DNA from: Escherichia coli
GTDB taxonomy: Bacteria > Pseudomonadota > Gammaproteobacteria > Enterobacterales > Enterobacteriaceae
Direction: 5' to 3' (one strand)
NCBI RefSeq assembly: GCF_003334405.1
Contig: NZ_QOWM01000027.1
DNA: 35,140 nt
The notes beneath the pieces were generated by a model. The model was not told where the DNA came from. It saw nothing but the letters and a program-made list of their open reading frames with translations, and did no database searches. Both the position numbers and the translations under genes were made by a program. Position 1 is the first letter of the stretch. Every line of letters begins with the position of its first letter. Positions 6,513-32,251 of this stretch are shown in pieces.

Positions 6513-6653
6513 TTCAGTACCTCACGACTCGGACAAAATGTCGTTGCGCGCACAGTACAGCGCAACTTATTTTGTTAAAAACATGTAAATGATTTTTTAT
6601 TGTGCGCTCAGTATAGGAAGGGTGTTTTCGGCTACAATCAAAACATGCCCGAA

Positions 6654-26648: not shown

Positions 26649-26691
26649 AAGACTAAACCCAATATTCGGTTTCTTAACTTTGCGGTGCGCT

Positions 26692-28278
26692 ATGGCACAT
26701 CCACCACGGCTTAATGACGACAAACCGGTTATCTGGACGGTATCTGTAACGCGCCTGTTCGAGCTGTTTCGCGATATCAGCCTCGAGTTTGATCACCTGG
26801 CGAACATTACCCCTATTCAGCTTGGCTTTGAAAAAGCAGTGACCTACATCCGCAAGAAACTGGCAAACGAACGCTGTGACGCCATCATCGCGGCTGGCTC
26901 TAACGGCGCGTACCTGAAAAGCCGCCTGTCAGTGCCAGTTATTTTGATTAAACCGAGCGGCTACGATGTGTTACAGGCACTGGCAAAAGCCGGAAAACTC
27001 ACCTCTTCTATCGGCGTTGTCACCTATCAGGAAACCATTCCAGCGCTGGTGGCGTTTCAAAAAACCTTTAATTTGCGCCTCGACCAACGTAGCTACATTA
27101 CCGAGGAAGACGCACGCGGGCAGATTAACGAGCTAAAAGCTAACGGCACCGAAGCGGTGGTCGGCGCAGGGCTGATTACCGATTTGGCAGAAGAAGCCGG
27201 AATGACCGGAATTTTTATCTATTCCGCCGCCACCGTGCGCCAGGCGTTCAGCGATGCGCTGGATATGACGCGCATGTCGTTACGCCATAACACTCACGAT
27301 GCCACCCGCAACGCCCTGCGTACTCGTTACGTGCTGGGCGATATGCTCGGTCAATCACCACAGATGGAACAAGTACGGCAGACTATTTTGCTGTATGCCC
27401 GCTCCAGTGCGGCGGTGTTGATTGAGGGGGAAACGGGGACGGGCAAAGAGCTGGCGGCCCAGGCGATTCATCGGGAATATTTTGCCCGCCACGATGCGCG
27501 ACAGGGCAAAAAGTCGCATCCGTTTGTTGCCGTCAACTGCGGGGCGATTGCCGAATCGCTGCTGGAAGCAGAACTGTTTGGCTATGAGGAAGGGGCGTTT
27601 ACCGGCTCGCGACGCGGAGGTCGCGCCGGGCTGTTCGAAATTGCCCACGGCGGTACGCTGTTTCTGGATGAGATTGGCGAAATGCCGCTACCTTTGCAGA
27701 CCCGGCTGCTGCGGGTGCTGGAAGAAAAAGAGGTCACCCGCGTCGGCGGGCATCAGCCTGTTCCGGTAGATGTACGGGTCATTAGCGCCACTCACTGCAA
27801 TCTGGAAGAAGATATGCAGCAAGGACGTTTTCGCCGTGATCTGTTTTATCGGCTGAGTATTTTGCGTCTGCAATTGCCACCACTGCGCGAGCGGGTGGCG
27901 GATATTCTTCCGCTGGCGGAAAGCTTTTTGAAAGTGTCTCTGGCGGCGCTCTCCGCCCCATTTTCTGCTGCATTACGCCAGGGGTTACAGGCAAGTGAAA
28001 CTGTGCTGCTGCACTACGACTGGCCAGGCAATATTCGTGAACTGCGCAATATGATGGAACGACTGGCGCTGTTTTTAAGTGTGGAACCGACGCCGGATTT
28101 AACGCCGCAGTTTATGCAACTGCTACTGCCGGAACTGGCGCGCGAGTCGGCGAAAACTCCCGCTCCACGCTTACTGACACCACAACAGGCACTGGAGAAA
28201 TTTAATGGCGATAAAACAGCAGCGGCGAATTATTTAGGCATCAGCCGGACGACGTTCTGGCGGCGGCTGAAAAGCTGA
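26692..28278 (+). CDS. prpR: Sigma54-dependent transcriptional activator of the prp operon
   Basis: 528-aa protein [33 protein letters not shown]... with AAA+ Walker [15 protein letters not shown] sigma54-contact motif and C-terminal HTH; ORF-track entry starts 4 codons upstream at a TTG. Confidence 0.92.
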
Positions 28279-28375: not shown

Positions 28376-28651
28376 TTACTTCTTCTTATAAATATTTGCC
28401 GTGCCGTGGATCTTATTGTCAGTTTGACCGGAGGTCAGTACCAACACATCAGCCCCTTTTTCATCCGCTTTTTTGATCAAATCTTCTTTTGCATCTGCAG
28501 TCGACATTTCATTGCTGGTTGAAATATCACCTATTTTTTCATACTGCGATTCAACTTTTTCAAATTCCGCTTTGGTCATCAATTCAGCGGCATAGACATT
28601 GGTAACGGCTAACGCTAACGCACCGACTAACATTTTAGAGATTATTTTCAT
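28376..28651 (-). CDS. yahO: Small periplasmic protein, DUF1471 (YdgH/BhsA/McbA-like) family
   Basis: 91-aa [42 protein letters not shown]... with a signal peptide ending VYA-AE. Confidence 0.85.
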
Positions 28652-28797: not shown

Positions 28798-29469
28798 ATG
28801 ATGCAGTTAGTTCACTTATTTATGGATGAAATCACTATGGATCCTTTGCATGCCGTTTACCTGACCGTAGGACTGTTCGTGATTACTTTTTTTAATCCGG
28901 GAGCCAATCTCTTTGTGGTAGTACAAACCAGCCTGGCTTCCGGTCGACGCGCAGGGGTGCTGACCGGGCTGGGCGTGGCGCTGGGCGATGCATTTTATTC
29001 CGGGTTGGGTTTGTTTGGTCTTGCAACGCTAATTACGCAGTGTGAGGAGATTTTTTCGCTTATCAGAATCGTCGGCGGCGCTTATCTCTTATGGTTTGCG
29101 TGGTGCAGCATGCGCCGCCAGTCAACACCGCAAATGAGCACACTACAACAACCGATTAGCGCCCCCTGGTATGTCTTTTTTCGCCGCGGATTAATTACCG
29201 ATCTCTCTAACCCGCAAACCGTTTTATTTTTTATCAGTATTTTCTCAGTAACATTAAATGCCGAAACACCAACATGGGCACGTTTAATGGCCTGGGCGGG
29301 GATTGTGCTCGCATCAATTATCTGGCGAGTTTTTCTTAGTCAGGCGTTTTCTTTGCCCGCTGTGCGTCGTGCTTATGGGCGTATGCAACGCGTTGCCAGT
29401 CGGGTTATTGGTGCAATTATTGGTGTATTCGCGCTACGCCTGATTTACGAAGGGGTGACGCAGCGGTGA
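28798..29469 (+). CDS. yahN: LysE/RhtB-family amino-acid exporter homologue
   Basis: 223-aa hydrophobic ORF MMQLVHLFMDEITMDPLHAVYLTVGLFVITFFNPGANLFVVVQTSLASGRRAG... Confidence 0.85.
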   Translation: MMQLVHLFMDEITMDPLHAVYLTVGLFVITFFNPGANLFVVVQTSLASGRRAGVLTGLGVALGDAFYSGLGLFGLATLITQCEEIFSLIRIVGGAYLLWFAWCSMRRQSTPQMSTLQQPISAPWYVFFRRGLITDLSNPQTVLFFISIFSVTLNAETPTWARLMAWAGIVLASIIWRVFLSQAFSLPAVRRAYGRMQRVASRVIGAIIGVFALRLIYEGVTQR

Positions 29470-29485
29470 GCAGATAATTTACTCT

Positions 29486-29731
29486 CTACGTAATCAACCT
29501 GATTTGCCGAATCACGGCCATCGGCGATGATAGCCCCCGTAATGCGTGGTCCTTATTTCCGATAAGTTTACTTGAGTCTTTAGCTTCCCATTTCAGCCCA
29601 CTCTCCCCTGTGTGGGCTTTTTTCATTGGTCTGCCCCATCCTGAATAGCCAAACAATGGCAATGTTCCACTTTGCAGGGATGATAATAAGGGGATCTGAT
29701 TCAGAAGAGTTTTGAAAAGTTGGACCGCCAT
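29486..29731 (-). CDS. yahM: Small protein of unknown function
   Basis: 81-aa ORF from ATG 29731 (MAVQLFKTLLNQIPLLSSLQSGTLPLFGYSGWGRPMKKAHTG...); the ORF-track entry is 10 codons longer. Coding status is uncertain: a + strand terminator hairpin lies inside it. Confidence 0.5.
   Translation of the reverse strand: MAVQLFKTLLNQIPLLSSLQSGTLPLFGYSGWGRPMKKAHTGESGLKWEAKDSSKLIGNKDHALRGLSSPMAVIRQIRLIT
29595..29623 (+). terminator. Rho-independent terminator candidate (likely for yahN)
   Basis: agcccac-tctcccctgt-gtgggct followed by TTTTTT: GC-rich 6-7-bp stem plus T-run; ~125 bp downstream of the yahN stop. Confidence 0.55.
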
Positions 29732-30143
29732 CGAGGCCTCGAACCCCGTACCATACAACAATCCTGGTTGTCGTCTGCTCTTCCTGATGAGCTAATGGCG
29801 GTTTTTGATATGAGCCTTACAGCATATTTTCTGTCAGGCTTGAGTGCGATGCGTAAGATACAGAAAAGACCCCACACAAACATGATGGAATTATGATTTT
29901 TTTCATATGAATGTCAACCAACACATTCACAAAACATCTGCATGAGATCATTTTTTATACACCGCATGGCTGCGAAACCACTACTGGTGCTTTTTTAAGC
30001 GAAGTGTCGCCGATCACAACAAAATATCGGCGAAAAAAGAGATGGAATGCCAGTTGGCATACAGATATACAGATGAAATGATTACCTGCATTGCGATTCA
30101 CTCTCAGGTGGAATAACAACTTGCAGGTGGAACCCTTTCTGAA

Positions 30144-30959
30144 CTAAAGAGTGTAGCGGATTTTAACGTGCTTATTTACAGGATAATATCTGTCACCTAA
30201 TTCCTGCACTCTATTAGATATCCATTCATTTAATCGCGCATCATCTCTGTATGTTTTTACGTCCAGAACAGAGAGCAATAACATCACCAGTGATTCAGGA
30301 AAAACAGGGTAGATATTTTTTAAGTGTAATAATAATCCATGCGCAAGCGCCTGCTTAATGGGCGCGTCTGTCTCCGGAATAGACGACATTTCGCGAAGCC
30401 ATTTTTCCACATGCATACACTCTTTCCCTTTAGGGAAAATTCTCAGCAAAGGCATATGGTATTCAAGAAGAATACATTTGCAATCTGTTCGCACTGAATC
30501 GATAAACTGCACTAATTTCTTAAGCCCGGTAAAGCGTCCAGCCTGCACGTTTGCTTTAATATCAAGAAACGCATCATCCTGGTCATATACCCAAACTGTC
30601 CCTTTTTGATTTTCAAGTATGTGAAAAACAAACTTAACCGGGTGATCAGGGTAATCCATCCAGTCATAAAATCCAGGGAAATCATTAAACTGCACATTTA
30701 TGGTGAGTGCGTTATCGTCTGACCACTCACAGTCTCGTACGGCAGCCATGAGATGAATGAGTTTGTCGTCATCGACTAAATCATCACGACAATCATAAGG
30801 ATAATCATAATATTGTTTAATCAAAACCTTGAATATATCGACACAGGAAACCAGGGAGCTTTTGATATCCTCTGGTAACTGATTGTTTTTAACCGTATTA
30901 AGTATGCTTTGTTGCGTATATGGCATCAAATTATTGTGCGGAGCTTTTAATGATATCAT
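30144..30959 (-). CDS. yahL: Protein of unknown function
   Basis: 271-aa ORF MISLKAPHNNLMPYTQQSILNTVKNNQLPEDIKSSLVSCVDIFKVLIKQYYDYPYDCRDD...; AT-rich coding region; no recognisable catalytic motif. Confidence 0.8.
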   Translation of the reverse strand: MISLKAPHNNLMPYTQQSILNTVKNNQLPEDIKSSLVSCVDIFKVLIKQYYDYPYDCRDDLVDDDKLIHLMAAVRDCEWSDDNALTINVQFNDFPGFYDWMDYPDHPVKFVFHILENQKGTVWVYDQDDAFLDIKANVQAGRFTGLKKLVQFIDSVRTDCKCILLEYHMPLLRIFPKGKECMHVEKWLREMSSIPETDAPIKQALAHGLLLHLKNIYPVFPESLVMLLLSVLDVKTYRDDARLNEWISNRVQELGDRYYPVNKHVKIRYTL

Positions 30960-31126
30960 CGCGATCTCTCTTAAATAAAAATAAACGTCGCAGATAATAA
31001 AGCTCTGATTAAACCAGGCACTATCAGAAATCGCTCATAACTAACGTGTGAAGTATTGTGTACTGGAGGGCGTTAATTTAACAATTTAAATTTACGTTAT
31101 AGGTTTTACTGCTACTTTGATATTAT

Positions 31127-31201: not shown

Positions 31202-32251
31202 TCAGTCTGTTAGTGTGCGATTATCGATAACAAAACGATATTTCACATCACCGCGCAGCATTCGCTCATAGGCTTCATTAATTTGATCGGCCCGAATCAT
31301 CTCTATATCAGCCACGATGCCATGTTCGGCGCAAAAATCGAGCATCTCCTGAGTTTCTGGAATGCCGCCAATCATAGAACCGGCTATCGCACGGCGTTTC
31401 ATGATCAGGTTGAAAACTTCCGGCGATTTATGCGGTGTCGCAGGCGCACCAACCAGCGTCATGGTGCCATCACGCTTCAGCAAGGTGGTAAAATCGTCGA
31501 GATTATGTGGCGCAGCTACTGTATTCAAAATGAAATCGAAACTCTTCAGATGAGCCGCCATCTCATCGGCATTGCGTGAGTTAACAACTTCATCGGCCCC
31601 CAGGGCTTTTGCCGCTTCGCGTTTTGCCTCAGAAGTGGTAAATGCCACCACATGTGCCCCCATCGCGTGGGCCAGCTTAATCCCCATATGTCCCAGACCG
31701 CCGATGCCGACCACGCCCACTTTTTTACCCGGCCCGGCCTGCCAGTGACGTAGCGGCGAATACGTGGTGATCCCTGCACACAACAAAGGAGCCACCGCCG
31801 CCAGCTGCTCTTGCGGGTGACGAATACGCAGAACATATCGCTCATGAACGACGATCTGTTGTGAGTAGCCGCCCAGAGTATGGCCCGGTTCGTCCGGCGT
31901 CGGCGAGTTATAGGTGCCGGTCATGTGATCACAGTAGTTTTCCAACCCGTCTTCACACTCTTCGCAATGTTTACAACTGTCGACAATGCAGCCGACACCG
32001 ACCAGATCGCCCGGCGCATATTTTTCTACCTGATCACCAACGGCTACCACACGCCCCACAATTTCATGACCCGGCACGCAGGGGTAAACCGTCCCCGCCC
32101 ACTCGGAACGGACCTGGTGGAGATCGGAATGGCAAACGCCACAGTAAGCGATTTCGATTTTGACATCATTCGGTCCCGGTTCACGCCGGGTGATATCCAT
32201 CGGTTCAAGTGGTTGTTTAGCGGAATATGCACCAACAGCTTTGATCTTCAT
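31202..32251 (-). CDS. yahK: NADPH-dependent aldehyde reductase (Zn-dependent alcohol dehydrogenase family)
   Basis: 349-aa ORF MKIKAVGAYSAKQPLEPMDITRREPGPNDVKIEIAYCGVCHSDLHQVRSEWAGTVYPCVPGHEIVGRVVAVG... with zinc-ADH GHE and CxxCxxC motifs. Confidence 0.9.
   Translation of the reverse strand: MKIKAVGAYSAKQPLEPMDITRREPGPNDVKIEIAYCGVCHSDLHQVRSEWAGTVYPCVPGHEIVGRVVAVGDQVEKYAPGDLVGVGCIVDSCKHCEECEDGLENYCDHMTGTYNSPTPDEPGHTLGGYSQQIVVHERYVLRIRHPQEQLAAVAPLLCAGITTYSPLRHWQAGPGKKVGVVGIGGLGHMGIKLAHAMGAHVVAFTTSEAKREAAKALGADEVVNSRNADEMAAHLKSFDFILNTVAAPHNLDDFTTLLKRDGTMTLVGAPATPHKSPEVFNLIMKRRAIAGSMIGGIPETQEMLDFCAEHGIVADIEMIRADQINEAYERMLRGDVKYRFVIDNRTLTD

Follow-up and report, generated by a model that had tools for sequence, protein, structure and literature searches.

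Lambdoid and Shiga toxin (Stx) phages and related prophages contain a tRNA cluster, which is located downstream of Q or of a DNA methylase gene and upstream of the stx or lysis genes, and in which a middle gene lies between tRNA-Ile(CAU) and tRNA-Arg(UCU). The middle gene is presumably the one that the 933W literature calls argN (ileZ-argN-argO); the names ileZ and argO of its neighbors appear in the phiP27 record. Here we describe a chromosomal relative of this middle gene, an 81-nt tRNA-like element that is encoded between yahN and yahL on the minus strand of a 35,140-nt stretch of Escherichia coli DNA (contig NZ_QOWM01000027.1; "the window" in the following), which is K-12-like and has the opposite orientation compared to the reference. 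The annotated small gene yahM overlaps this element as well as a hairpin that resembles an intrinsic terminator of yahN. On balance, the region is best explained by two separate functional modules between yahN and yahL, which are spanned by a chance open reading frame (ORF).

The chromosomal element and the phage middle gene do not differ in the acceptor stem (CCGCCAU/AUGGCGG, with U73 and CCA) and in the D-arm, their T-arms are much alike, and their overall identity is 77-85%. An insertion-bearing "AGACGAC..." arm is common to the element and the copies of phiP27, mEp460, and plasmids. However, the chromosomal element is not part of a cluster, it has a promoter of its own and an anticodon arm that is unique, and it is frozen across species, in contrast to the decaying aberrant phage copies. 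A second system of similar kind are non-decoding tRNA-like RNAs that function outside of translation, such as the "tRNA-Other" of Bacillus cereus, the anticodon loop of which is reportedly normal and which is reportedly charged with an amino acid. Both are conserved chromosomal tRNA-shaped RNAs that seem to be unfit for ordinary decoding, but here it is the anticodon arm that is abnormal.

ARAGORN calls the element as an 81-nt tRNA-like gene (for coordinates see Table 1). It has the hallmarks of the canonical cloverleaf, i.e., the 7-bp acceptor stem followed by U73 and an encoded 3' CCA, U8, a D-arm (GCUC/GAGC) with GG in its loop AUCAGGAA, and a T-arm (CGGGG/CCUCG) with the loop UUCGAGG, which contains the typical UUCRA. 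The anticodon arm does not have the usual 5-bp stem and 7-nt loop with U33 and a purine at position 37. Instead, its stem comprises 7 bp (ACGACAA/UUGUUGU) and its loop only 6 nt (CCAGGA), while ARAGORN reads the loop as CAGGAUU, with A33 and U37.

Conservation was analyzed with 13 aligned Escherichia loci, which included an O157-type locus (L032), three genomes of phylogroup B2 (sequence type 131 (ST131), uropathogenic E. coli (UPEC) 536, and FHI_NMBU_03), Escherichia sp. E1V33 (L004), a genome of a divergent "E. coli" clade (L005), and E. albertii. Only one of the 81 columns of the element is variable, compared to 100 of 199 columns of its flanks (Fisher test, 3e-18) and 111 of 223 third codon positions of yahN (binomial test, 5e-23). 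All 81 nucleotides are identical in E. albertii, E1V33, and the divergent clade genome, and the neighboring DNA is 37-88% identical. Among complete E. coli genomes the element is identical in 4822 of 5171, versus 1528 of 5115 for a segment of equal length from the middle of the ORF, and a 101-nt block has at least 99% identity in 5149 of 5172 genomes. A single variant is common, U68C (O157:H7, NJS001), which turns a G.U pair of the T-stem into a G-C pair; rarer variants are C79A and an insertion of IS1. In the sampled RefSeq rows the feature underlying the match to the element was yahM, a hypothetical protein, or none, and an RNA was annotated in none of them. We regard it as likely that the element is an RNA under selection, and we tentatively propose that it is a functional RNA that acts in trans. 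As a side observation, E. coli strain 21335 (L167) carries IS1 within the T-arm of the element, directly followed by betT, which indicates a large deletion from yahA to yahL in this strain.

The element seems to be expressed from a promoter of its own. A promoter scan revealed a near-consensus sigma-70 promoter upstream of it (TTGACA-16-CATAAT), the hexamers of which are conserved in E. coli, E1V33, and the divergent clade genome, and are weaker in E. albertii. The data on transcription are taken from the literature. Reg-Seq has confirmed a transcription start site (TSS) of yahM and has shown that integration host factor (IHF) acts as a repressor, and in the literature with these data yahM is described as "completely uncharacterized." Adams et al. 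(eLife 2021, PMC7815308) built a yahM construct for which, according to the primer listed there, the forward primer begins at ATGTTTGTGTGG, i.e., at window position 29883, which is taken to be the TSS used by these authors. Window positions were converted into NC_000913.3 coordinates with K-12 = 375,135 - window, based on this cloning primer and on the tables of Adams et al., in which 345,390 is listed as -14 to yahM. It should be mentioned that the A at position 29883 also belongs to an ATG from which an ORF of 60 codons extends through the tRNA-like element (29701-29883, minus strand), so that the transcript could be a leaderless mRNA; the leader contains substitutions and an indel between strains, and this ORF is probably not conserved.

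Several observations weigh against a functional tRNA-like RNA. The Rfam tRNA model RF00005 (gathering score 29 bits) did not match the element at E<=10, even when it was searched alone as a 126-nt sequence, while canonical relatives reach 55-72 bits with the same model. About 5% of the E. coli genomes and one further locus (L028) lack the element. In the tables of Adams et al. (PMC7815308) the sole mapped 3' end of the minus-strand transcript, K-12 345,390 (+), corresponds to position 57 of the element and not to the CCA. This end is located 10 nt beyond the 7-bp helix and does not look like normal tRNA maturation; it could be a product of exonuclease stalling or a sign of cis action. In the latter case the element would be a cis-acting structured 5' untranslated region (UTR) that controls premature Rho-dependent termination, like the class described by Adams et al. 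The tables in PMC7815308 score the end, 14 nt upstream of the yahM ATG, as Rho-dependent and of the class "upstream ORF," and a reporter with the yahM 5' UTR and ORF was built in that study. We nevertheless consider cis action unlikely, because nothing downstream is conserved enough to merit regulation (the spacer has 37% identity to E. albertii and the ORF is broken), and because the conserved block matches the boundaries of the tRNA-like element, with the nucleotides of the tRNA elbow and the CCA retained. We prefer a tRNA-like RNA, which would be processed and stable, to a leader element.

The second conserved feature is the hairpin on the plus strand, which the first-pass annotation had noticed together with a TTTTTT run. 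Both could be read directly from the sequence. The stem of 7 bp, with 5 GC pairs, is formed by AGCCCAC (29595-29601) and GTGGGCT (29612-29618), which enclose the 10-nt loop TCTCCCCTGT (29602-29611); T follows at 29619-29623 and C at 29624, so that the run of six T includes the last stem base, T29618. The measured distance between the end of the yahN stop codon (29469) and the hairpin is 126 nt, in agreement with the approximate 125 bp given previously. The folding energies are -12.7 kcal/mol as plus-strand RNA and -11.1 kcal/mol as minus-strand RNA, and a 46-nt context has -13.7 kcal/mol with a z-score of -3.1. The built-in terminator scan found no terminator, solely because it limits loops to 3-8 nt. 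A custom scan for perfect 7-bp stems with at least four GC pairs, loops of 3-10 nt, and at least five T in the next six positions, criteria that were set after the fact, yielded two sites on both strands of the 35-kb window, compared to 0.18 +/- 0.43 in 100 dinucleotide shuffles. The other site, at 6543-6572 (plus strand), is GTTGCGC...GCGCAAC followed by TTATTT. An Rfam match (E<=10) of the hairpin to Betaproteobacteria_toxic_sRNA with 20 bits, far from the gathering score of 50, was dismissed as generic similarity to terminators. While the GC-rich stem-loop lies directly in front of a U-run on the plus strand, it is followed by GAAAUGGG without a U-run on the minus strand. Therefore, any terminator activity would be one-directional and belong to yahN.

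Comparison between species is in agreement with this assignment. From the yahN stop codon to the hairpin E. albertii and K-12 have 83% identity, in the hairpin and T-run 93%, and then only 37% over the next about 90 nt; BLAST homology to E. albertii stops at about position 29627, 4 nt beyond the T-run. The collapse of homology just past the T-run fits an intrinsic terminator of yahN. The identity of the yahN 3' UTR to the divergent clade genome is 91%, and third codon positions of yahN have 62-67% (62% for E. albertii). None of the seven stem pairs is altered in non-B2 E. coli, the divergent clade genome, or E. albertii, and the latter has changes in the loop only. The substitution of the ST131 type (AGCCUAC) retains a U.G pair in the plus-strand RNA (-10.4 kcal/mol), but leads to a C.A mismatch in the minus-strand RNA (-4.5 kcal/mol). 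A co-oriented gene upstream, conservation of the stem, and variation that preserves the structure are thus all present. According to ExcludonFinder, the convergent transcripts of yahM and yahN overlap in at least 50% of the RNA-seq samples, and an end of the yahN transcript at about 29623 would produce such an overlap. The hairpin resembles the intrinsic terminators of other convergent gene pairs in its GC-rich stem and U-run, its position behind a gene and opposite an oncoming transcription unit, and its conserved stem and variable loop. It differs from them in its 10-nt loop, its distance of 126 nt from the stop codon, its location inside an annotated ORF of the opposite strand, and its one-directional nature, the opposite strand being ended by Rho instead. 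A further structure resembles a second plus-strand terminator: the antisense of the 5' half of the tRNA-like element (29770-29806, plus strand) is a branched hairpin followed by TTTTT, which is conserved along with the element.

Other results do not favor a terminator. The loop is longer than the typical 3-8 nt, with 10 nt, or 6 nt if an isolated inner C-G pair is formed. The Term-seq tables of Adams et al. (PMC7815308) contain no 3' end of yahN and none at K-12 345,50x-345,52x, for which weak expression of yahN could be the cause. In the B2 variant of the UPEC 536 type the hairpin is weakened to -5.8 kcal/mol, and it is deleted in E1V33 and L028, which indicates that it is dispensable. No homologous terminator follows yahN in Citrobacter, Salmonella arizonae/diarizonae, and Edwardsiella; because the yahM/yahL DNA is specific for Escherichia, these genera are uninformative in this respect. 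Taken together, the hairpin is probably an intrinsic terminator of yahN. That it terminates the yahN transcript in the cell, as had been proposed, is plausible and fits the comparative data, even though the Term-seq tables do not list the expected end.

Alternatively, the hairpin might protect the 3' end of the minus-strand RNA, with transcripts of the yahM unit being trimmed to this stem-loop after their termination by Rho. Such trimming to a hairpin located upstream is known for Rho-terminated RNAs, the hairpin can be formed by the minus-strand RNA as well, and the Rho region at 29550 is located about 45 nt downstream of it on the minus strand. This explanation is improbable, because the U-run is present on the plus strand only and the ST131-type substitution spares the fold of the plus-strand RNA and damages that of the minus-strand RNA. 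In E. albertii, moreover, the hairpin stays with the yahN 3' UTR, while the DNA between the hairpin and the tRNA-like element has been replaced. In addition, the tables of Adams et al. (PMC7815308) list no minus-strand 3' end near 29595 (K-12 about 345,540).

Between and across both features extends yahM, the coding status of which had been called doubtful in the first-pass annotation. The ORF exists in two versions, the annotated one of 81 codons that starts with ATG at 29731, and a version of 91 codons that starts with TTG. The hairpin is located wholly inside of both, as had been stated, while the interval 29486-29761 that had been assigned to the 81-aa ORF is that of the longer version. 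Homologs of YahM are restricted to Escherichia/Shigella, no Pfam domain is on record, and many clusters, including those of ED1a and 83972, are truncated to 45-60 aa; neither homologs nor domains were found beyond the genus. The first-pass annotation had suggested a conservation and codon substitution analysis across Escherichia, which was performed with the 13 loci and speaks against selection at the protein level. From the conserved ATG the frame is open for 81 codons in six of them and broken in seven. A stop codon is present at codon 12 in the O157-type locus, a 1-nt deletion in the A-run, which is the T-run of the terminator, interrupts the frame in the three B2 genomes ("frameshifted" according to the annotation pipeline PGAP), and it ends after 17 codons in E1V33, after 11 in the divergent clade genome, and after 31 in E. 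albertii. In the intact ORFs nine of ten variable codons are nonsynonymous, and the ratio of nonsynonymous to synonymous polymorphism (pN/pS) is 3.53, while yahN has a value of 0.15 in these genomes. Thus neither maintenance of the frame across lineages nor purifying selection (dN/dS <1) is apparent. Two alternative frames gave a pN/pS of about 0.2, which was judged to be an arithmetic mirror of changes at codon position 2 of the yahM frame, based on the presence of only ten variable sites and on the absence of a plus-strand ORF of more than 29 codons in this stretch. Divergent full-length homologs of YahM have ILIIIPAKWNIAIVWLFRTGQT where K-12 has IPLLSSLQSGTLPLFGYSGWGRP, and from their sequences they look like frame-switch mosaics, in which the same DNA is read in another frame between compensating indels.

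Rho requires RNA that is free of ribosomes, and the transcript contains 26% C and 13% G immediately downstream of the tRNA-like element. A Rho termination region inside of yahM, K-12 345,585 (+), is listed by Adams et al. (eLife 2021, PMC7815308) with a bicyclomycin ratio of 6.2 (p = 3e-33). As Rho acts on ribosome-free RNA, this counts, indirectly, against efficient translation of yahM. The GAGG motif 5 nt upstream of the ATG is a point in favor of translation, some of which would be possible. The ORF is very probably an annotation artefact; it is at most young and dispensable, and very unlikely to encode a protein that is maintained by selection. YahM could also be a genuine small protein that is evolutionarily young and belongs to some lineages of E. 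coli, with the hairpin within its coding sequence by coincidence or as the yahN terminator. The ORF is open in K-12 and in many genomes of the A/B1 type, and the yahM transcription unit is expressed and regulated. We hold this to be quite improbable, because B2, O157-type, and all three non-coli Escherichia lineages have a broken frame next to a fixed tRNA-like element, because the start codon (element positions 71-73, in the 3' strand of the acceptor stem) and the Shine-Dalgarno-like GAGG (in the T-loop) are hidden within the acceptor and T arms, and because of the high pN/pS, the mosaics, and the Rho termination inside of the ORF. As an artefact, yahM would resemble the spurious or lineage-restricted "y-gene" ORFs of K-12, which are likewise short, have homologs only in the genus, no domain, no functional data, and lie in AT-rich acquired DNA. 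In contrast to them, yahM overlaps two identifiable non-coding features, and this explains partial conservation of the DNA without constraint on the protein. The alternative that had been offered before, in which the locus would mainly be a terminator or 3' UTR, is incomplete, because the minus strand has a confirmed promoter and the ultra-conserved tRNA-like element.

Of the whole locus, only the tRNA-like element has relatives elsewhere, namely, the middle genes of the phage clusters. The copies in phiP27, mEp460, TL-2011c, PhiR49_2, and a plasmid (L001) have 76-85% identity to it and an invariant acceptor stem. Two phage copies are canonical (Rfam 55-56 bits), i.e., tRNA-Arg with the anticodon UCG in PhiR49_2 and a tRNA with UGG in TL-2011c. 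Copies with the enlarged "AGACGAC..." arm (phiP27, mEp460, and plasmid pHX138) are recognized neither by ARAGORN nor by Rfam. In 120 viral or prophage contigs with the enlarged arm the T-loop is destroyed in most cases (CGGGGGCGGGUCCCCG), and some have mismatches in the acceptor stem or truncations. The lost T-loops and acceptor mismatches make these copies look like decaying pseudogenes. They (L045-L164) are still located within the Ile-X-Arg cluster, and represent a widespread decaying pseudogene of lambdoid prophages. The chromosomal type of the anticodon arm was found in none of the viral contigs. ARAGORN found no other tRNA between 29000 and 30400, and the flanks have no homology to phages, i.e., the location is not that of the phage cluster. 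The absence of this arm from viral contigs, together with the solitary copy, argues that the Escherichia element is a derivative that kept the tRNA body and was then fixed. It is very improbable that the element is a functionless relic of a phage tRNA or integration site that owes its identity to recent transfer or gene conversion: its closest phage relatives are decaying pseudogenes, the Rfam tRNA model failed, and it is dispensable in some lineages, but in these genomes the flanks on either side have diverged at the usual pace, the viral contigs contain no donor copy of the chromosomal type, the median copy number in E. coli genomes is one, the common variant U68C strengthens a stem pair, and the probability of such conservation is about 5e-23 compared to neutral sites.

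Two further observations concern the phages themselves. The loops of the middle tRNAs of TL-2011c (CUUGGAA, UGG; L042 2501-2577) and PhiR49_2 (CUUCGAA, UCG; L043 2501-2577) differ, and both tRNAs have the same acceptor stem with C1:G72, which suggests anticodon switching inside one lineage of the middle tRNA. The tRNA clusters of the phages are followed by the small RNA (sRNA) STnc100 of Rfam, and in TL-2011c also by AsxR (L042 800-1005, L001 2571-2777, L043 2135-2334); the Rfam search found no sRNA of the STnc100 or AsxR type at the chromosomal yahM locus.

With two modules, the region might function as follows. On the plus strand, the 3' UTR of yahN would end at the one-directional terminator (29595-29618 plus the U-run), which would keep antisense read-through away from the opposing promoter and the RNA of the second module. 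On the minus strand, the IHF-repressed promoter yahMp would fire at 29883 and yield a leader of about 82 nt followed by the 81-nt tRNA-like RNA (29801-29721). This RNA would have originated from the middle tRNA of a phage, with retention of the acceptor, D, and T arms and the CCA, and with loss of a decoding anticodon loop. The polymerase would go on into C-rich untranslated RNA, from which Rho would release it near 29550. The yahM ORF, with its AUG in the acceptor stem, would run across a neutral spacer and the terminator and 3' UTR of yahN, end 16 nt from the yahN stop codon, and be a by-product of annotation whose frame has been left open in some strains. It is a tentative idea that the RNA is a domesticated phage-derived tRNA-like RNA that has been unchanged in Escherichia since before the split of E. 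coli and E. albertii and has a role outside ordinary decoding. It would act, e.g., as a decoy or sponge for a factor that binds or cleaves tRNAs, as a regulator, or as a non-ribosomal carrier of an aminoacyl group.

The initial finding, a probable terminator in a doubtful small ORF, is an ordinary one and would justify to change the annotation of yahM (b0327) to "doubtful coding sequence." If the proposed explanation is true, E. coli K-12 contains an unannotated functional RNA gene beneath a spurious protein annotation. In the most intensively annotated bacterial genome, the strongly expressed promoter of an "uncharacterized protein" appears to drive a tRNA-shaped RNA. It is conserved across the genus like a real tRNA and yet unable to decode normally, which makes it a candidate for a non-canonical, phage-derived function. 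The tRNA-like reading also explains why experiments with yahM that were designed with a protein in mind (reporters, expression studies, y-ome lists) were uninformative.

Table 1. Positions of the features at the yahN-yahL locus in the window.
Feature	Position	Strand	Basis
prpR	26680-28278	+	ORF list, RefSeq annotation
yahO	28376-28651	-	ORF list, RefSeq annotation
yahN coding sequence, LysE-family transporter, the gene that the hairpin would terminate	28798-29469	+	ORF list, RefSeq annotation, pN/pS 0.15
Putative yahN 3' UTR, stop codon to hairpin	29470-29594	+	Identity between species
Annotated yahM ORF, 81 codons	29486-29731	-	ORF list, RefSeq annotation; judged to be without protein-level selection
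TTG-extended yahM ORF, 91 codons	29486-29761	-	Mechanical ORF list
Published Rho termination region, K-12 345,585 (+)	29550	-	Adams et al. 2021, supplementary file 2; inside yahM ORF
Hairpin and T-run, putative intrinsic terminator of yahN	29595-29623	+	Sequence, folding, stem conservation
Spacer without conservation, separates the conserved modules; codes for N-terminal third of "YahM"	29624-29715	.	37% identity to E. albertii, 38% to E1V33 (L004); contains indels and segments that have been replaced
tRNA-like element, 81 nt	29721-29801	-	ARAGORN, fold, conservation, phage homologs
Published Term-seq RNA 3' end, K-12 345,390 (+)	29745	-	Adams et al. 2021, supplementary files 1 and 3; corresponds to nucleotide 57 of the tRNA-like element
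Minus-strand leader, TSS 29883 to 5' end of the tRNA-like element (about 82 nt)	29802-29883	-	Primer of Adams et al.; 78-88% identity between species
Sigma-70 promoter yahMp, TTGACA-16-CATAAT (11/12)	29890-29917	-	Promoter scan; Reg-Seq
yahL	30144-30959	-	ORF list, RefSeq annotation
yahK	31202-32251	-	ORF list, RefSeq annotation

The surrounding DNA also deserves a few remarks. The islet of yahL and yahM is AT-rich (GC content 0.32-0.42 in the yahL region) and absent outside Escherichia, and it looks horizontally acquired. An origin of the islet from a prophage remnant was considered, and was not borne out at the protein level, since searches with YahL and YahM yielded zero matches to PHROGs or NCBIfam. 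The genomes of phylogroup B2 have no counterpart of yahL, and in them yahK is located directly after the promoter region of the tRNA-like element. Further downstream on the minus strand, the Term-seq tables of Adams et al. contain 3' ends at K-12 344,011 and 344,013 (+), i.e., at about 31122-31124 of the window and about 80 nt past the yahK stop codon. A CTCTCC...GGAGAG hairpin adjoins these ends and is probably the terminator of yahK.

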